Both the position numbers and the translations under genes were made by a program. Source: Candidatus Aenigmatarchaeota archaeon (GTDB lineage: Archaea; Aenigmatarchaeota; Aenigmatarchaeia; GW2011-AR5; JAGGXF01). Taken from it: DNA of 15,692 nucleotides. Location: assembly GCA_029932645.1 (NCBI GenBank), contig JAOZPR010000003.1, positions 28,131 through 43,822 of the forward strand. Direction: 5' to 3'. The notes beneath the pieces are model-generated. The model was given only the letters and a program-made list of their open reading frames with translations, was not told the DNA's origin and made no database searches. Below, one piece after another: positions 1 to 15,446 of this stretch; position 1 is the first letter of the stretch; every line of letters begins with the position of its first letter.

Positions 1-20
1 TTAATTATTTTATTATAAGC

Positions 21-45
21 GCATTTCTATACGAAAACAGGGGGT
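21..45 (+). promoter_or_regulatory. ORB-like origin recognition box 1 (Orc1/Cdc6 binding site) with G-string
   Basis: GCATTTCTATACGAAAACAGGGGGT: TTTC...GAAA dyad followed by a G5 string, resembling the archaeal ORB consensus (TTCCAGTGGAAAC...GGGG). Lies about 180 bp upstream of cdc6 and forms an imperfect inverted pair with 78-102. Confidence 0.7.
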
Positions 46-77
46 GAGGTCTGTTTAAAGCAAAATATATAAAGGCA

Positions 78-102
78 ACCCCAGTTTCGTGTAGAGAAAT
101 GC
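78..102 (-). promoter_or_regulatory. ORB-like origin recognition box 2 (inverted copy)
   Basis: Reverse complement reads GCATTTCTCTACACGAAACTGGGGT, an imperfect copy of box 1. The G-strings of the two boxes point inward across an approximately 32 bp spacer containing TTTAAAGCAAAATATATAAA. Confidence 0.7.
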
Positions 103-225
103 TTATATATTTTACAAAAGAAATAAAGGTAGTTTTAAATACGTTTTTAATAAAAATTATATGCTTAAAATATATGTTAGATTTATGTGTTTTATGGTCT
201 TTAATTGGTTTGTGGGGTGTTGGTT

Positions 226-1425
226 ATGGATGATAGTCTTTTTTCTTCATATCTAGACAAACCAAGCATTTTTAAAAACAAAAACATTTTAACAAGCAAT
301 TACATTCCGGATAAGATTGCGCACAGAGAGGAACAAATAAAACAGCTCGCCTCTATTGTTGCTCCAGCGCTGCGAAGCTATAGCCCAAACAACGCGTTTG
401 TTTTTGGTACGGTTGGCACAGGAAAAACAATAAGCGCGCATTTTGTTATGAACGAGCTTTTAACAGCTGCGAAAAAAAACAAAACAGTCCCTATTAAAAC
501 CATCTACATAAATTGCAAAATGAAGAAGGTTGCTGATACAGAATACCGCTTGTTTGCCCGACTATTGAAGGAATTTGATTGTGTTGTGCCAGATACAGGA
601 CTTCCAACAGATGTTCTTTACAGAAAATTTTTCGAACTTATTGATAAGCAAGAACAAATTATTATACTGGTTTTGGATGAGATAGACGCGCTGGTTAGTA
701 AAGTGGGAGACGAGTTTCTTTATAATTTAACCAGAATAAATACAGATCTAACAAAGGCCCATCTTGCAATAATAGGAATAACAAACGACTTGTCGTTTAC
801 AGATGCTCTTGATGCGCGTGTTAAAAGTTCGCTCGGCGAAGAAGAAATAATTTTTCCACCATATAACGCGCTCCAACTGAGAGATATTTTAATGGAACGG
901 GCTGCAGCTGGTTTCAATGATGGGGTCTTGGAGGAGTCTGTTATAAACAAGTGCGCGGCACTGGCTGCACAGGAGCATGGTGATGCTCGACGGGCAATAG
1001 ACTTGCTGCGCGTGGCTGGTGAGGTTGCTGAAAGAGAGCACGAAACAAAAATCAGCGAGAAGCACGTTGATATTGCAGAGCAAAGAATAGATTTGGATCG
1101 CGTGACCGAGTCGGTCAAGACACAGCCCAGACAATCCCAGGCTGTTCTTTATGCGATTATAAAAGCAGACTCAGACAAGTTAGGCAGTCTGTTGACAGGA
1201 GACGTTTTTGATAAATATAAAGAGATATGCACAAACAACGGACTCAAGATTTTGACACAGCGCAGGATTAGTGACCTTATAGCAGAACTGGATATGCTAG
1301 GTATAATACACACAAAGGTCATATCCCATGGGAGATACGGCCGCAGCAGGGAGATATCTTTGGCAATAGAGGGCACTGTTTTGGATAATGTAAAGAAGAT
1401 TTTGTTTGACAGATTTGGTGAATAG
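226..1425 (+). CDS. cdc6: Orc1/Cdc6 replication initiator (AAA+ ATPase plus winged helix)
   Basis: YIPDKIAHREEQ N-terminus, Walker A GTVGTGKT, YINC, Walker B VLDEID, DARVKSSL, FPPYNALQLRDIL, sensor-2 GDARRAIDLLR, wHTH TQRRISDLIAELDMLGII...GRYGRSREI. ATG at 226 preferred over TTG 205 because GGGGTG (214-219) is an RBS-like element. Confidence 0.97.
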   Translation: MDDSLFSSYLDKPSIFKNKNILTSNYIPDKIAHREEQIKQLASIVAPALRSYSPNNAFVFGTVGTGKTISAHFVMNELLTAAKKNKTVPIKTIYINCKMKKVADTEYRLFARLLKEFDCVVPDTGLPTDVLYRKFFELIDKQEQIIILVLDEIDALVSKVGDEFLYNLTRINTDLTKAHLAIIGITNDLSFTDALDARVKSSLGEEEIIFPPYNALQLRDILMERAAAGFNDGVLEESVINKCAALAAQEHGDARRAIDLLRVAGEVAEREHETKISEKHVDIAEQRIDLDRVTESVKTQPRQSQAVLYAIIKADSDKLGSLLTGDVFDKYKEICTNNGLKILTQRRISDLIAELDMLGIIHTKVISHGRYGRSREISLAIEGTVLDNVKKILFDRFGE

Positions 1426-1455: not shown

Positions 1456-1860
1456 ATGGTTGCAACCCCTGTTGTCACATGCCTGATAAAGCATGAAGGA
1501 AAGATACTTTTATTAAAAAGGTCTGGTGCAGTGAGCACGTATCAGGGCAGGTGGGCCGGAGTATCTGGATACCTGAAAAACAACGAACGCCCAGAACAGC
1601 GGGCAATAAAAGAAATAGAGGAAGAGACGGGTCTGATCGGGTCTGATGTAATATTGAAAAAAACAGGAGATGTTGTTGAGGTTGTTGATACAGACCAAAA
1701 CAGAACCTGGTTGATTCATACCTTCCTTTTCGAGGCAACGTCGAATAAAATAAAGCTCAATGAGGAGAACGAAAGATACGTGTGGATCCGACCAGAGCAG
1801 CTTAAAAATTACAACACTGTTCCGGCGCTGGACAGGGTCTTCAAGAAGCTGCTCCATTAG
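1456..1860 (+). CDS. Nudix hydrolase
   Basis: Nudix box G-x5-E-x7-KEIEEETGL (K in place of the usual R), preceded by ILLLKRS...GRWAGVSG. GGTGAT RBS at 1444-1449. Substrate cannot be inferred. Confidence 0.9.
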   Translation: MVATPVVTCLIKHEGKILLLKRSGAVSTYQGRWAGVSGYLKNNERPEQRAIKEIEEETGLIGSDVILKKTGDVVEVVDTDQNRTWLIHTFLFEATSNKIKLNEENERYVWIRPEQLKNYNTVPALDRVFKKLLH

Positions 1861-1888: not shown

Positions 1889-3112
1889 ATGAAGATGTTG
1901 ATCATGAAAAAAGACGAAATAGTTAATATTTTTTTGGATGCTGGCTTTTTGATTAGTTCTGATGCATTGGATTTTCTGGCTGCGGCCGACAAAACAGACG
2001 ACGACATCAAGGCGATGATAACTAAAATAAAAGATAAGACCAGCCCAGAAAAATTACCAGAAAAAGCCGTGATCATGCTCTCTGATATAAAACAACCTGA
2101 TGCGGGCGAAGGGGCAGACAAAGGCACTTCAGAGGCCAAAGATGAAAGCAAAGATGAAATAAAAATCATAAAAAATATTACTAAGAAGTTGGACGAGATT
2201 AAGACAGAAGACTTCCTGCATTTTTACCAGGACAAATATAAAAAAATGCAGAAAATCATACAAGGCAAAATTAAAGCGAATTTTGTTTCGATAAACAAGC
2301 TTGGTGGTTTGCGAAAAGAGGTTACTGTTATAGGCATAGTTAAGGATAAGAAAGAAAAGGAAGAAAAGCAGGTTCTTGAACTGGAAGACATGACAGGGGC
2401 TGTTCCAGTTGTTTTTAGTTCGGGGGTTGTTGATACAGCAAGCGTTGATTTGGATGATGTCATCGCTGTTCGTGGAATATCGGCAACCAGAGTAATATAT
2501 GGGAAAGAGATAATATATCCAGATATTCCACTACGTTCTGCTTCTTCTGGCTCTGGAAAGGCATGTTTCATTTCTGATTTACATCTAAACGAGGCACCAA
2601 CAACCGACATTAAAAAGTTTTTCAAATGGTTTTCACAAAGCGATATAAAGTATTTGTTTGTGGCTGGGGACATCGTAGACATGGCCGCATTTGAGAAGTT
2701 TATAGAAGAGTTTAATGGGAGAAAAACTTTTGTTATCATACCAGGCAACATGGATAATAATGAATATCCGGCCTTACCGATTAAAATACACGAGAAAGGA
2801 GAAAAAAGGAATATAGTATCACTAAGCAATCCAGCAATGGTTGAACTAAATAATATTAAAATACTACTTGTCCACGATTTTAATCTTAGTATGCTAAAGA
2901 AGCGGTATCTTGGAAAATCAAAAGATATCTTAGAAGAGGATTATCTTGTCTTGGATGAGGTGCCTGATATTGTGCACTGCGGCCATACACATGAGCCGTT
3001 CGTTAGAAATTATAAGTCTGTTACAATAGTAAACAGCGGTTCGCCGCTGACCGAGTTCAGGCCGGTTGTTGTCGATTTCAACACACGGGCAGTAGAACAA
3101 GTAAAGATATAA
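1889..3112 (+). CDS. PolD small subunit DP1 homolog (N-terminal helical domain, OB fold, calcineurin-like phosphoesterase), shortened and probably exonuclease-dead
   Basis: OB fold EVTVIGIVKDK...LELEDMTG...DDVIAVRG...YPDIP; phosphoesterase motifs ISDLH, AGDIVD, PGNMD, SNPAMV, LLVHD, EDYLVLDEVPDIVHCGHTH, VNSGS, in DP1 order. True start may be ATG 1895 or 1904. Confidence 0.92.
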   Translation: MKMLIMKKDEIVNIFLDAGFLISSDALDFLAAADKTDDDIKAMITKIKDKTSPEKLPEKAVIMLSDIKQPDAGEGADKGTSEAKDESKDEIKIIKNITKKLDEIKTEDFLHFYQDKYKKMQKIIQGKIKANFVSINKLGGLRKEVTVIGIVKDKKEKEEKQVLELEDMTGAVPVVFSSGVVDTASVDLDDVIAVRGISATRVIYGKEIIYPDIPLRSASSGSGKACFISDLHLNEAPTTDIKKFFKWFSQSDIKYLFVAGDIVDMAAFEKFIEEFNGRKTFVIIPGNMDNNEYPALPIKIHEKGEKRNIVSLSNPAMVELNNIKILLVHDFNLSMLKKRYLGKSKDILEEDYLVLDEVPDIVHCGHTHEPFVRNYKSVTIVNSGSPLTEFRPVVVDFNTRAVEQVKI

Positions 3113-3167
3113 TGAGATATAATAAAGATAAAGACATGTGAATAAAAAGACAATTCTTTCAATAAAC

Positions 3168-3175
3168 TATAAATA
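3168..3175 (+). promoter_or_regulatory. Possible TATA box for polB
   Basis: TATAAATA preceded by A-rich AATAAAC in the 180 bp DP1-polB gap; position and composition only. Confidence 0.3.
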
Positions 3176-3292
3176 TTTAGAGCGTTAAATTGTTTGTTGG
3201 GCCTGTGGTTTGTTGTACGTGTGTTTGTAATTATTATAGTTGTTATTGTTATCGTTTATTGTTGTCATATTAGTGTGTAGTGGGTTGGTCTA

Positions 3293-6025
3293 ATGGTTAG
3301 GTTACAGTTATTAGATGCTGATTATATCATAGCAGACAACAAGCCAATCATACGTCTTTTTTGTAAGACCGATACAGGAAGGACAGCCTGCGTTTTTTCA
3401 AAGGACTTTCGACCTTATTTTTATGTTTATGGCGACAACGAAAAGATAGTGGAGGTTTTAAATAAAAAATATTCTGACAGGGTGCATAAAATACAAGAGG
3501 CCAAGAAATTTTTTTCAATAGGTTATACGGCGCGCCCGACACACGTGTTGAAGGTGTTCACAAACGTACCTTCTGATGTGCCATTCTTAAGAGACGAACT
3601 GTTTGAAAAGTATCGAAAAATCGTTAAAAAAATTTTTGAGGCAGATATACTCTTCAAGTATCGTTTCATGGTAGATAACGGACTGGCGGGTATGTGCTGG
3701 TTTGATGTTGTTGGCGGAAAACAGTTTAGCAAAACTGTTAAGTGCCCGATTATTGAGGCAAAAACAATCAAGCCCGTGCGAGAAGTGAAGAATGCACCAT
3801 TGAAATATTTATCGTTCGATATTGAAGCAATATCCTATGATTATAACAGAATGGTTGATGAAAAGAGAGACCCCATTGTTATGATTTCTATGGCTTTTAA
3901 TCCTAGTTATCGCGGAAAGAAAACACTTGTTCTTGTTGCAAAGCAGGGCGCCAGAGAAAAAGACGTTGAAAATTTTTCCAGCGAGAAAGAGATGTTGGAA
4001 AGATTTCTGGCCATAATAGATGATTTTGATCCGGACGTTTTGACTGGTTATAATATTATTAATTTCGACATTCCATACATCTTGGAGCGTCTCGGAAGAA
4101 ACAATCTGCCGAAAAACTTTGGTAGAATAACTGATAAACCATGTTTTGTTAGGAAATTCGGTGCTTACCAGACCTGTACTGTTGTTGGCAGGGTGGTTGT
4201 TGACCCGTACCAGATTATCAAGGCAGACCCATTCATGCGTTTCAAGAGATATGATCTGAACACGGTTGCTCTTGAGATGCTGGGAGACGGAAAAATAGAT
4301 GTTGGTTATAAGGAAATGGTGAAGCTCTGGAATGGCTCTAGTGAAAAGCTTAGTAAGTTTATTAGGTATTCCCGTAAGGACGCTGACCTGGCACTCAAAA
4401 TATTATTAAATACCGACCTTTTGGGTAAATTTTTTGAACTCTCAAAGGTTTCTGGCCTTCTCTTACAAGACAGTCTTGGCGGTCAGTCTGCCCGTGTGGA
4501 AACAAGCTTTCTCCGGGCATGCGGAAAACGGGATTTTGTGATACCCACAAAGCCATCAAAGGCTGAAATAATTAAGCGGGAAACAGAGCGACAGAAAAAA
4601 GGCCTGAAGGGTGCCACAGTTCTCGAACCAAAAAAGGGGCTACATGCAGATGGCTGTGTTTTGGTTCTGGATTTCAAGAGCCTGTACCCATCACTAATAA
4701 GAACCTTTAATATATGCCCGACTTGCCTGATTACCAAGGACTCCCCAACAAATGTTAAAAAACACAAAACACCCTCTGGTTCATATTTTGTCGACGAAAC
4801 TGTTCGGAGGGGCGTTTTACCAAGCATACTTGAGAACCTGCTTGAGACACGGTTCGCAATAAAGAAGAAGATGAAAAAGGTAAGCGGAGAGGAAGCAAGG
4901 ATTCTGAATGCGAAGCAGCTCGCACTGAAAATCATGGCAAATTCTTTCTATGGTTACACAGGTTATCTTCGCGCGCGCTTATATGTCATGGATGTTGCCA
5001 ACAGTATTACAGCATATGGCAGGGAAAATATACAAAAGACAAAAAAGATAATTGAAGAAAACTTTCCTGTTGAGGTTATATATGGCGACACAGATTCTAT
5101 CTTTTTGAAGACAGACATAACAAATCTAGACAAGGCTGCCCAACTCGGGAAAAGAATTAGCAAGTATGTAACAGAGCACCTGCCAGGATATCTTGAGCTG
5201 GAGTTTGAAAAGGTGTACCGAACATTCCTGATACTTACAAAAAAACGCTATGCCGGCTGGAAATTTGTTGAGGTTGAAGGCAAGTGGAAAGACTCTATAG
5301 ACATGCGTGGTATAGAGACTGTACGGCGTGACTGGTGTCAGCTGGTTACTGATGTGATGAATCATATACTTGAGCTGATATTGAGGCACGGCGATGTCAA
5401 AAAGGCCATAGATTATGTCAAAACAGTTCTGCTGGAACTCCGACAGGGTAAGGTGCCTCTGGAAAAGCTAACGATTATAAAGGGCATCACAAAAACACCA
5501 TCTGCATACAAGGGTGTGCTCCCACACATAGAGCTGGCCAAGAAGCTGTATCGACGGGACCCTGTGCATGCACCACCGGTCGGTGGGCGGATAGGTTTTG
5601 TTATAATAAAGGGCAACCAGATGCTTTCCAAGCGTGCCGAAGACCCGGAATATGCCAAGAAACATGGTCTGTTAATAGACTCGAAATATTACATAGAGAA
5701 TCAAGTCCTACCGCCTGTTGCAAGGATTTTAAGTGCTGTGGGCGTCTCATCAAGCGAACTTCTTGGCGGTGGACAACAGGTTTCGTTGTCAGATGCCATA
5801 TCCGGAAAAAAACGCAAGCTAAATCATAAAATAAGTCTGGAATATTCTGGCAGCAGTAAAAGAGAAGAAAAGCCACTTGACAGCTGGGAAGAGTTTGTCT
5901 GCTCCAAGTGTAAGAAGTCATATCGCCGCATGCCACTTACTGGCCGATGTGAGTGTGGGGGCGAGCTTCTCATTGCGTATCATGGCAGCGTTTCCCGAAA
6001 GGTCAGAAAACAGGCCAAGAAGTAA
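3293..6025 (+). CDS. polB: Family B DNA polymerase (PolB3-like) with C-terminal DP2-like C4 zinc finger
   Basis: ExoI SFDIEA, ExoII GYNIINFDIPY, ExoIII YSRKDA; polymerase motifs DFKSLYPS, KQLALKIMANSFYGY, YGDTDS, KKRYAG, RGIETVRRDW, all intact. N-terminal DADY/RPYFY/EADILF as in archaeal PolB3. C-terminal extension with C870, C873, C886, C888. Confidence 0.97.
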   Translation: MVRLQLLDADYIIADNKPIIRLFCKTDTGRTACVFSKDFRPYFYVYGDNEKIVEVLNKKYSDRVHKIQEAKKFFSIGYTARPTHVLKVFTNVPSDVPFLRDELFEKYRKIVKKIFEADILFKYRFMVDNGLAGMCWFDVVGGKQFSKTVKCPIIEAKTIKPVREVKNAPLKYLSFDIEAISYDYNRMVDEKRDPIVMISMAFNPSYRGKKTLVLVAKQGAREKDVENFSSEKEMLERFLAIIDDFDPDVLTGYNIINFDIPYILERLGRNNLPKNFGRITDKPCFVRKFGAYQTCTVVGRVVVDPYQIIKADPFMRFKRYDLNTVALEMLGDGKIDVGYKEMVKLWNGSSEKLSKFIRYSRKDADLALKILLNTDLLGKFFELSKVSGLLLQDSLGGQSARVETSFLRACGKRDFVIPTKPSKAEIIKRETERQKKGLKGATVLEPKKGLHADGCVLVLDFKSLYPSLIRTFNICPTCLITKDSPTNVKKHKTPSGSYFVDETVRRGVLPSILENLLETRFAIKKKMKKVSGEEARILNAKQLALKIMANSFYGYTGYLRARLYVMDVANSITAYGRENIQKTKKIIEENFPVEVIYGDTDSIFLKTDITNLDKAAQLGKRISKYVTEHLPGYLELEFEKVYRTFLILTKKRYAGWKFVEVEGKWKDSIDMRGIETVRRDWCQLVTDVMNHILELILRHGDVKKAIDYVKTVLLELRQGKVPLEKLTIIKGITKTPSAYKGVLPHIELAKKLYRRDPVHAPPVGGRIGFVIIKGNQMLSKRAEDPEYAKKHGLLIDSKYYIENQVLPPVARILSAVGVSSSELLGGGQQVSLSDAISGKKRKLNHKISLEYSGSSKREEKPLDSWEEFVCSKCKKSYRRMPLTGRCECGGELLIAYHGSVSRKVRKQAKK

Positions 6026-8128: not shown

Positions 8129-8389
8129 ATGGTCAGAAAAACTAAAAAAGTCGCGAAAAGGCAGAGGAGAAAACACTTCCTGATGGATAATCCGCTTTCA
8201 CTAGCACTGCTCTTAATTGGCCTGGTAATTGTAGTTGAATCTCTTGGGACGATATGGTTGCTCTTCAATGCGTTTAATGTGAATATTTTTCAGTTTGCGT
8301 TCTGGACAGTGTTCTTGTTGTTCAATGTTGTCAAACTGATAGCCGGGCTCGTCGCGATTAAGGCCGGATACATGATGATAGAAAAGTGA
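8129..8389 (+). CDS. Small hypothetical membrane protein (basic N-terminus, about 2 TM helices)
   Basis: AGGTGAT RBS at 8119-8125; 86 aa with two long hydrophobic stretches. Confidence 0.75.
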   Translation: MVRKTKKVAKRQRRKHFLMDNPLSLALLLIGLVIVVESLGTIWLLFNAFNVNIFQFAFWTVFLLFNVVKLIAGLVAIKAGYMMIEK

Positions 8390-14174: not shown

Positions 14175-15446
14175 ATGAAAATAACAGATGAGGGAGTTGC
14201 ATCAGCCCTGCTTTGGCTAGTCAGTGTTATTTATCTGGCTGGGTTTACTGTTCCTATTGCTGGTCTCAAGATATCGCAGTTCCCCCTTCCTGTTACTATC
14301 GGAGCCATTCCATTCAGATGGTTGTTTTTGGTTTTTTATTCAATTGCATTGTTTTTCCTGTTTTCATGGGTTGAGATAAAGAACAAAAACATCCTCGCCG
14401 GACTGGTTGTGTTTTTTTCATTGCTATTATCTGTCTTGTTAGATTATAAATTGGTTATCGTTTTATTAGCTCTTGGCGCATACTTCCACTATAAAAAGAA
14501 GCCGCAATGGGATAAAATTTTAGTTATCCTTATTTTATTCTTCTTTATCTACATTCCAACAGTTGCCTCTTTTGACCAGTCATATGTTATTGCTGCCAAC
14601 CCGAGGGCGATATTAACGCCAAGTTGGTGGACCGCGCTGAACTGGATTAAGAACAACACGGAAGAGTGCGCGGTGGTTGCAACCTATTGGGATCCGGGAC
14701 ACTTCATAACAGGCATCGCGAGAAGGCCTGTTGTTTATGATGGCGGAACTCAGAATGCTCTTGCCCAATTTAATAAATCATCTGTTGATTTGAACTCCAA
14801 GGCATTCCAGGACCCGACCATGTTTACTATAGAAGGCAACACGGTTGTGAGATCGCGTATGAAGGACATGGCAACAACCCTGTTCACAGACGACGAAGAG
14901 CTTGCTTACGACATTCTTAAGCTATATCGTGGTAATTGCTCAGAAATGTATTATCTTGCTTCCTGGGATTTAATCGGAAAGTCTCAGTGGTGGTCATATT
15001 TCTCGACCTGGGAGCCAAACAAGGCCACAGGTAACAAATATTTTTATATTCCGTTGCAGTTGTCGATGAAAAAAGAAGGCGAAGACGGCTCTACCAATTA
15101 TGTTTTTTCGCTTGGCCAGAACCAAGCGATTGTGATAAACGAAAAAACAGCAGGCGGCCAAACAATTATGACACCAGTATTAAAGCAAGGTCCATCATTC
15201 ACAAAGATAAGCAAGCTATTCTACTTCGAAAACGGTAAGGCATTTATGCAGCAATATCAAGGTGCAGAAGTAGAAGGCATGGTTTGGCTTGACCCAAGCA
15301 AGCAGTCCCTATTTTTCATACCAAAGGAACTTGAGAACAGCATGTTCACGCGTCTCTTCTTCTTCCAGGGCCAGGGACTCAAACACTTTGAGTTTGTGAA
15401 CAACTGGGGCGGAGAAGTTAAGTTATTCAAGGTTAAGTTTGATTAA
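14175..15446 (+). CDS. aglB: Oligosaccharyltransferase AglB/STT3, C-terminal half (several TM helices plus soluble WWDYG-type domain)
   Basis: WWTALNWIKNNT...VVATYWDPGHFITGIARRPVVYDGGTQ, DLIGK (DK-type motif), NSMFTRLFF, EVKLFKV C-terminus. Confidence 0.88.
   Translation: MKITDEGVASALLWLVSVIYLAGFTVPIAGLKISQFPLPVTIGAIPFRWLFLVFYSIALFFLFSWVEIKNKNILAGLVVFFSLLLSVLLDYKLVIVLLALGAYFHYKKKPQWDKILVILILFFFIYIPTVASFDQSYVIAANPRAILTPSWWTALNWIKNNTEECAVVATYWDPGHFITGIARRPVVYDGGTQNALAQFNKSSVDLNSKAFQDPTMFTIEGNTVVRSRMKDMATTLFTDDEELAYDILKLYRGNCSEMYYLASWDLIGKSQWWSYFSTWEPNKATGNKYFYIPLQLSMKKEGEDGSTNYVFSLGQNQAIVINEKTAGGQTIMTPVLKQGPSFTKISKLFYFENGKAFMQQYQGAEVEGMVWLDPSKQSLFFIPKELENSMFTRLFFFQGQGLKHFEFVNNWGGEVKLFKVKFD

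Follow-up and report, generated by a model that had tools for sequence, protein, structure and literature searches.

A family-B DNA polymerase with a DP2-type zinc finger encoded next to a DP1-type subunit without the catalytic histidine in an Aenigmatarchaeota genome

Organization of the DP1*-PolB locus

The DNA stretch analysed here (the window) comprises 15,692 nucleotides of contig JAOZPR010000003.1 (positions 28,131 to 43,822, assembly GCA_029932645.1) from a Candidatus Aenigmatarchaeota archaeon. On its plus strand lie, in this order, genes for an Orc1/Cdc6 initiator (205-1425), a NUDIX hydrolase (1456-1860), a homologue of DP1, the small subunit of the archaeal polymerase PolD, here termed DP1* (1889-3112), and a family-B DNA polymerase, PolB (3293-6025). 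DP1* and PolB are separated by a spacer of 180 bp. A preliminary description of this DNA had proposed, at the same coordinates, that a DP1 homologue is followed on the same strand by a PolB ending in a DP2-like motif of four cysteines (C4), and the reading frames, the domain matches and the finger all bear this out. The two genes and their parts are as follows.

1889..3112, plus strand: DP1* (407 amino acids), shortened homologue of the PolD small subunit and of B-subunits, probably exonuclease-inactive
2315..2515, plus strand: OB-fold of DP1*, residues 143-209, seen as strands in the structural model and bearing E166, D167, T169 and D189 of the predicted groove
2558..3100, plus strand: phosphoesterase (PDE) domain of DP1*, residues 224-404 in the model, with Metallophos_2 matched over residues 226-387
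2744..2755, plus strand: motif III of DP1*, GNMD, residues 286-289, with Met288 in place of the catalytic histidine
3293..6025, plus strand: PolB catalytic subunit with DP2-type tail (910 amino acids), assigned from domain matches, tail matches and alignment
3629..4267, plus strand: 3'-5' exonuclease domain of PolB, residues 113-325 (DNA_pol_B_exo1), motifs intact
4478..5737, plus strand: polymerase domain of PolB, residues 396-815 (DNA_pol_B), motifs intact
5888..6001, plus strand: zinc finger of DP2 Zn-III type, PolB residues 866-903, with Cys 870, 873, 886 and 888 and the YRRxPLxG loop at 877-884

PolB ends in a single DP2-type zinc finger

The 910-residue open reading frame (ORF) encodes a complete family-B polymerase (PF00136, 392 bits) including the exonuclease domain (PF03104, 134.6 bits), and its last ~45 residues hold a single C4 motif, C870-x2-C873-x12-C886-x-C888. 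Three DP2 models align with residues 865-903 through their C-terminal ends (E 3.2e-6 to 2.5e-5), and the finger matches Zn-III of solved DP2 structures (6knb_B, residues 1127-1159, E 1.8e-5; 6t8h_B and 6hms_B, E 5.7e-4). The finger is 37-46% identical to DP2s of the same phylum (E ~3.5e-4). Human Pol epsilon's C-terminal domain (CTD; 5vbn_B) gave an insignificant E of 2.2 with the PolB tail. When residues 760-910 served as query, 179 out of 443 candidate proteins reached E<=1e-3; among the best 120, every organism name given is Aenigmarchaeota or Aenigmatarchaeota, apart from 'archaeon GW2011_AR5'.

In an alignment of 108 intein-free PolB sequences, that of the window included, C870, C873, G884, C886 and C888 are invariant in all 108 and P881, L882, G889 and G890 are conserved in at least 90%. 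Likewise invariant are the exonuclease residues D176, I177, E178, N254 and D259, plus Y359 and D363 further on, and the polymerase residues D460, F461, Y465, K546, G554, Y597, D599, T600, D601, S602 and K650-Y653, so that both the polymerase and the exonuclease are under constraint. Judged by sequence conservation, the finger is as strongly constrained as the active sites of PolB. The intact and invariant exonuclease motifs also favour the earlier suggestion that PolB would supply its own proofreading.

Between the polymerase domain and the finger linker, residues 825-836 (window 5765-5800) form a G-x-G-x-Q-x-x-L stretch in which G825, G827 and Q829 are conserved in at least 90% and which, we presume, is similar to the PCNA-binding box that archaeal PolBs have at their C-terminus. 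If this is such a box, the finger was appended after the old PolB C-terminus. Many orthologous PolBs lie in frames of ~1,300-1,800 amino acids and are matched in two or three pieces (L007 4752-8924 and L024 5720-9658 among the compared loci, and likewise in genomes G217, G218, G219, G225, G230, G210 and G176). The intein/Hint domains PF14890 and PF14528 occur on long PolB homologues and point to intein insertions near residues ~556-600. Some genomes of the same order have a second PolB of ~770-830 amino acids (32-36% identity) that ends near residue 830 and has no finger, e.g., G117:C2:23981-26380, G153:C8, G166:C38, G106:C2:270935-273280 and G037:C25:85225-87057; none was found in the window's genome.

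DP1* has lost the histidine of phosphoesterase motif III

DP1* has the OB plus calcineurin-like phosphoesterase fold of PolD small subunits but departs from their five intact motifs by the loss of the GNHD histidine. The protein matched Metallophos_2 (67.2 bits), DNA_pol_E_B (31.8 bits, cut-off 29.1) and an OB fold, and stayed below the cut-offs of the NCBIfam models for PolD small subunits (best NF003118, 185.5 bits against 445). An AlphaFold2 model (mean pLDDT 92.0, pTM 0.79) was used for a fold search, in which the top nine matches were DP1 chains of Pyrococcus abyssi (E 1.2e-26, TM 0.63-0.67, 23-25% identity), followed by the B-subunits of Pol epsilon, zeta, delta and alpha (E 7e-20 to 1e-16, 12-16% identity). 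A PDB search with the profile of 117 homologues matched six distinct sequences, all of them PolD small subunits (E ~1e-28).

The homologue search yielded 228 proteins at E<=1e-3 among 7,381 candidates. Among the best 120, inspected by name and length, all organism names are Aenigmarchaeota or Aenigmatarchaeota, again with the exception of 'archaeon GW2011_AR5'; one member of a homologue cluster is labelled Atribacteria. These homologues typically comprise 353-397 amino acids, and the window copy with its 407 residues is longer because of a low-complexity insert of ~40 residues rich in Lys, Glu and Asp (residues ~50-94, window 2036-2170), in which pLDDT drops below 50 at residues 76-86.

The phosphoesterase motifs of DP1* read DLH, GD, GNMD, H and GHTH, the histidine of motif III alone being replaced (Met288). 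In the alignment of the 117 homologues (A1), this histidine is absent from its column in 117/117 sequences, and GNH[DE] does not occur anywhere in them (0/117). The remaining catalytic residues drift, N287 being kept in 48 of the 117, H232 in 85, D261 in 100, H329 in 104, H366 in 94 and H368 in 81. E166, D167 and R216 are invariant, and T169 and D189 are conserved in at least 96%. The preliminary description had called this DP1 degenerate, a word too strong for a copy that keeps four of the five motifs.

In P. abyssi DP1, H451 acts as proton donor, and the H451A variant is exonuclease-deficient although metal binding survives the mutation (Raia et al., 2019, PMC6355029). The H451A variant 6hmf_A reads GNAD in the second stretch of its HMMER alignment, which covers motif III. 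Since H451A is exonuclease-deficient and GNMD aligns with GNAD, Met288 would be the natural counterpart of the exonuclease-dead mutation, and by this analogy the DP1* of the window is probably inactive as a nuclease.

DP1* could also be an independent metallophosphoesterase or nuclease (Mre11- or YfcE-like) whose gene neighbours that of PolB, with no role as its subunit. Such an enzyme would fit Metallophos_2 as the best Pfam match, the score of the YfcE subfamily (48.6 bits, below its cut-off of 56.25), the four retained motifs of the window copy, and the public records, in which the homologues are called 'metallophosphoesterase family protein'. However, the only PDB sequences matched by the profile are PolD small subunits (6/6), and the fold ranks DP1 first and the eukaryotic B-subunits next. 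The histidine is lost throughout and the metal ligands drift, most clearly N287 and H368, while E166 and D167 of the predicted groove do not vary. As it is also disfavoured by the phylum-wide linkage to PolB, by the complex prediction, which passed, and by published two-hybrid binding (PMC12680538), a free-standing enzyme appears highly improbable.

Predicted docking of the PolB tail onto DP1*

The complex of full-length DP1* with PolB residues 815-910 was predicted from our own unpaired alignments with a zinc ion included. The three runs reached ipSAE values of 0.80, 0.81 and 0.81, as compared to 0.00 for the best of three controls, with a pLDDT of at least 62 for the partners and contacts that agree between runs in at least 46%. 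Together with the two-hybrid binding published for the phylum, these values speak for the interaction that the preliminary description had postulated.

The predicted interface is formed by PolB residues 878-884 (RRMPLTG) and 892-906 and by DP1* residues 102-117, 150-152, 166-171 and 188-189. At its core, PolB 878-884 faces E166, D167, T169 and D189 of DP1*. In P. abyssi PolD, the Zn-III loop with R1131/R1132 (KxRRxP) lies in an electronegative groove between the OB and PDE domains (PMC6355029), and the docking geometry predicted here would be the same. For P. horikoshii, a Zn-III peptide of 20 residues alone has been described to bind DP1 with nanomolar affinity (PMC6355029), and therefore a tail consisting of the finger only is a plausible minimal docking module. 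Conservation averaged over the predicted interface (0.67) did not differ from that of the catalytic residues (0.69) or of all positions 96-407 (0.67); the single interface residues that stand out are E166, D167, T169, D189 and F112.

The finger might alternatively serve mainly to contact DNA or to recruit primase or PCNA, DP1* binding being secondary. A contact between primase and the DP2 CTD in Heimdallarchaeia (PMC12680538) would be in line with such a role. The conserved tail residues RRxPLxG are, however, the very residues facing DP1 in PolD and in our prediction, and the same source gives no PolB3CTD-primase interaction for Baldrarchaeia. We consider a mainly DP1-independent function of the finger very unlikely; DP1 docking and contacts to DNA or other factors are compatible functions.

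DP2 is rare and finger-bearing PolB common in the phylum sample

The genome from which the window originates (G000) has been assembled into 43 contigs with a total of 718,593 bases, at a completeness of 89.16%. In the assembled sequence DP2_N (PF03833) had no match, and hits of the whole-DP2 model TIGR00354 were limited to the PolB tail (24.3 bits) and a 55-residue frame on contig C9, where a scrap scored 13.8 bits. DNA_pol_E_B and DNA_pol_B matched once each. Thus, neither a DP2 nor a second, canonical DP1, for which the preliminary description had suggested a search, was found by profile search in this 89.16%-complete genome, and DP2_N was also absent from all 28 same-order relatives (0/28).

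Within a phylum sample of 201 genomes, own genome included, DP2_N occurs in nine, namely all eight members of one family (f11) and genome G091. The DP1* query matched 173/201 genomes, among them 27/28 same-order relatives at E<1e-74; matches in other orders were weaker and often confined to the OB region. With the PolB query, 199/201 genomes were matched at E<=1e-20. None of the best 150 PolB matches (E<=4e-239) came from f11, whose best E values range from 2e-44 to 2e-76, and most of these 150 reach residues 890-909, i.e., they extend through the finger. The DP1s of DP2-bearing genomes (five f11 loci and G091) are 396-512 amino acids long as called, two being cut by contig ends. They read PGNHD in 6/6 cases, as compared to 0/7 DP1* in the same alignment, and have a stretch of ~20 residues after motif II that is missing from DP1*. 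From the phylum counts and the states of motif III it follows that GNHD-less DP1 and finger-bearing PolB co-occur and exclude DP2, as the preliminary description would have led one to expect. The exception is G091, the only genome outside f11 with DP2, which also has a finger-bearing PolB. Its DP1, with GNHD, and its DP2 are adjacent on a contig of 3,058 bases (L033, G091:C64:1-3058), which either contamination of the genome bin or a lineage possessing both systems would explain.

One could also assume that the partner of DP1* is still a DP2 whose gene falls in the ~11% of the genome missing from the assembly, the PolB finger being incidental. The state of the assembly leaves space for such a gene, and in G091 DP2 and PolB are found together. 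On the other hand, DP2_N is missing from all 28 same-order relatives and present in only 9/201 genomes of the phylum, eight of which belong to a single family with longer, GNHD-keeping DP1s, and the DP1 of G091 is not of the DP1* type, because it keeps GNHD and is paired with DP2 on its short contig. A hidden DP2 partner is therefore extremely improbable.

DP1* and PolB are linked throughout the phylum

The two genes that precede DP1* in the window are the following.

205..1425, plus strand: orc1/cdc6 replication initiator (Cdc6_C 89.4 bits, Cdc6_lid 88.4 bits, AAA domains)
1456..1860, plus strand: NUDIX hydrolase gene (NUDIX 56.7 bits), between cdc6 and DP1* and outside the conserved cluster

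Linkage was determined in 112 genomes that have both genes among the listed matches (146 for DP1*, 150 for PolB), with distances taken between the matched stretches and not between ORFs. In 81 of them PolB follows DP1 on the same strand at a distance of at most 1.5 kb. Two further genomes have both genes on the same strand 3.0 or 6.2 kb apart, one shows the reversed order, and in 23 the genes share a contig on opposite strands at a distance of 1.9-4.9 kb (e.g., G156, G035, G104, G130). In these 23 genomes the linkage is kept in another arrangement, possibly by lineage-specific rearrangement. The genes are on different contigs in 5/112 cases, and on one contig within 6.3 kb in 107/112. The adjacency noted in the preliminary description is thus a feature of the phylum and points to co-expression of both subunits.

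In addition, 20 same-order loci were compared, chosen to have both genes on one contig (G134, G151, G176 and four short-contig genomes were left out), so that counts from this set lean towards linkage. Directly upstream of DP1* and on the same strand, cdc6 is found in 18/20 loci; in L021 it lies beside DP1* on the opposite strand, and the L008 locus has none. DP1* and PolB are direct neighbours in 15/20. By BLAST, none of the 20 loci matched the NUDIX gene, that of the same-genus genome included, and the gene therefore is a local insertion in the window.

The main texts of PMC7544198 and PMC12680538 do not appear to describe a cdc6-DP1-PolB linkage, the gene-neighbourhood file deposited at FigShare with the latter lying beyond these texts; in its main text, the 2025 study mentions gene neighbourhood only for priL-priS and RFC (PMC12680538). 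The present contribution is modest and consists in confirmatory counts and in the conserved cdc6-DP1*-PolB linkage.

Proposed architecture of the polymerase

Taken together, the locus very probably encodes two subunits of a replicative polymerase, a proofreading PolB that is docked by a DP2 Zn-III tail onto a nuclease-dead DP1-type B-subunit. The catalytic subunit would be a family-B polymerase that proofreads by a working exonuclease of its own, and its C-terminal tail would represent the Zn-III finger of a lost DP2. The basic YRRxPL loop of the finger is predicted to fit the acidic groove that DP1* forms between its OB and PDE domains; DP1* itself would have been shortened and would have lost the proton-donor histidine of the nuclease site. 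From this loss a role of DP1* as non-catalytic B-subunit would follow, and the protein may most likely act as an adaptor to other parts of the replisome, as the eukaryotic B-subunits do.

Several points weigh against this interpretation. The DP1* of the window keeps the metal-ligand motifs I, II, IV and V plus the Asn of motif III, and metal binding as well as some residual activity may conceivably persist. The window tail has no helical bundle such as that of the DP2 and eukaryotic CTDs, and the aenigmatarchaeal DP2CTD has been called 'degenerate', shorter and of 'a different predicted structure' (PMC12680538). The proteins of the published two-hybrid assays are from other Aenigmatarchaeota and are not the pair of the window (PMC12680538). 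As the genome is incomplete, DP2 counts as not found, its absence being unproven. The ipSAE mark, reached by 116/157 solved complexes and 2/215 mismatched pairs, is calibrated only roughly for the present case because own alignments and a ligand were used, neither of which was part of the calibration. Since DP1-DP2 complexes have already been solved, the passing value may also reflect memory of PolD.

The region upstream of cdc6 and further genes of the window

Being neighbours of cdc6, the polymerase genes may lie close to an origin. One further element lies upstream of cdc6.

14..107, no strand assigned: origin-like inverted repeat, arms at 14-36 and 85-107, each beside a G-run, around AT-rich DNA

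The arms of 23 nt are 78% complementary, and G038, a genome of the same genus, has each of them as a conserved block. With the strict arm pattern, G038 showed a single matching arm and L023 (G126) a single match with three mismatches, as compared to none in the cdc6-upstream regions of the other 17 relatives searched. Because the strict pattern is so rarely matched elsewhere, the label 'origin' rests on the adjacency of cdc6, the repeat and one close relative; the element could equally be, or overlap, the cdc6 promoter. The location 'at the origin' given in the preliminary description is thus plausible. Directly before the window start is a run of 100 N (G000:C26 ~28031-28130), and the sequence upstream is therefore incomplete. 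The run interrupts a conserved upstream gene trio (ORFs of 348, 391 and 96+ amino acids), which we take to resemble the archaeal HMG-CoA synthase/thiolase/DUF35 set.

With regard to the origin of the fusion, a PolB gene might have entered the DP2 gene by recombination, in an ancestral cdc6-DP1-DP2 cluster near the origin, with nothing but the Zn-III codons of DP2 remaining. The position of cdc6 upstream of DP1* (18/20), the phylum-wide DP1-PolB linkage and the homology of the tail to DP2 Zn-III are points in favour. Such a replacement in situ is unsupported by the PolD-keeping family f11, in which 0/5 DP1 loci have cdc6 or DP2 alongside. Because DP1 adjoins neither gene in all five, we regard this scenario as rather unlikely; if it were true, synteny could serve to reconstruct how a eukaryote-type catalytic subunit arose by fusion. 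In one f11 genome, an ORF of 809 amino acids directly follows the canonical DP1 (L025 7772-10201) and has no match to the queries used.

Among the remaining genes of the window, an ORF of 86 amino acids (8129-8389) has no Pfam or NCBIfam match. An ORF of 423 amino acids (14175-15446), downstream of an STT3-like gene, gave only a weak match to archaeosortase-associated STT3 (E 2.8e-4, 19.4 bits).

Comparison with known polymerase systems

A system of PolB and inactive DP1 has already been published for this phylum in 2020 and tested for binding in 2025. Kazlauskas et al. (2020, NAR 48:10142, PMC7544198) described B6-aenigma1 PolBs with one metal-binding motif that is most similar to the DP2 CTD. 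According to this study, DP2 is absent in most Aenigmarchaeota and a group of inactive DP1s co-occurs with the B6-aenigma1 PolBs; PolB was proposed to have replaced DP2, the inactivation of DP1 being afforded by PolB's own exonuclease. In 2025 (Nat Ecol Evol, PMC12680538), AlphaFold3 and yeast two-hybrid assays supported binding of Aenigmatarchaeota DP1 to PolB-DP2CTD, and not to canonical PolBs. The preliminary description had asked for earlier descriptions or tests of a PolB paired with an inactivated DP1, and both exist.

The PolB of the window, with its intact family-B motifs, DP2-like C4, lineage and genome without detected DP2, displays features of B6-aenigma1. It shares with B6-aenigma1 and the inactive 'Aenigma_GB_GCA_002789635-like' DP1 the single DP2-like motif, the co-occurrence with an inactivated DP1, the lack of DP2 and the lineage (PMC7544198), and the same pair appears as PolB-DP2CTD and DP1 of Aenigmatarchaeota in PMC12680538. 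Nothing of substance differs; the NUDIX gene, the ~40-residue insert of DP1* and the 180-bp spacer are peculiar to the window. Two PolB fragments in Table S2 of PMC7544198 read like the PolB of the window and are identical by eye over the last ~300 residues. Table S4, compared over ~20 of its ~57 Aenigmarchaeota rows, has a B6 PolB hit for an organism of the same label, and its only row for the organism of a tail orthologue (892 amino acids, E 7.8e-48 over the tail) gives B4 with a weak E of 8e-104. The text of PMC7544198 is inconsistent as to which lineages hold B4 and B6. KHO47493 and OIN85950 have no occurrence in the part of its supplement that was searched, and 'B6-aenigma2' sequences have since been described as Baldrarchaeia contamination (PMC12680538).

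With archaeal PolD (P. abyssi; 6HMS, 6T8H, 5IHE), the pair has in common the OB plus PDE fold of DP1*, the homology of the tail to Zn-III and, as far as predicted, the docking mode. In contrast to PolD, there is no DP2 catalytic body and proofreading sits in the catalytic subunit, while DP1* differs from PolD DP1 by the lack of the catalytic histidine, of ~20 residues after motif II and of part of the N-terminal region. Baldrarchaeia PolB3-DP2CTD with DP1 likewise consists of a PolB with a fused DP2-derived CTD and a retained DP1, in the absence of DP2 and with two-hybrid support for binding; by published description, the Baldrarchaeia CTD is of full length, like those of DP2 and eukaryotic polymerases, whereas the aenigmatarchaeal one is shorter (PMC12680538).

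The eukaryotic polymerases alpha, delta, epsilon and zeta (4Y97, 5VBN, 6TNY) also consist of a PolB catalytic subunit with a Cys-metal tail and a non-nuclease second subunit of OB plus PDE fold, and their B-subunit folds match DP1* at E 1e-17 to 1e-20. Compared to the eukaryotic CTDs, the window tail has one C4, no CysA and no Fe-S site, is too short for the helical bundle, and matches DP2, not Pol epsilon, by sequence. Moreover, DP1* keeps metal ligands, whereas the eukaryotic B-subunits have lost all active-site residues (PMC6355029). The locus adds no new principle, but one more genome to a published picture and counts for the complementarity of DP2 and PolB tail and for linkage. Published scenarios of how Pol alpha, delta and epsilon originated draw on this arrangement, and with PolB, Cys-metal tail and a probably nuclease-dead DP1-type B-subunit the locus would represent the eukaryotic replicase design in a present-day archaeon.

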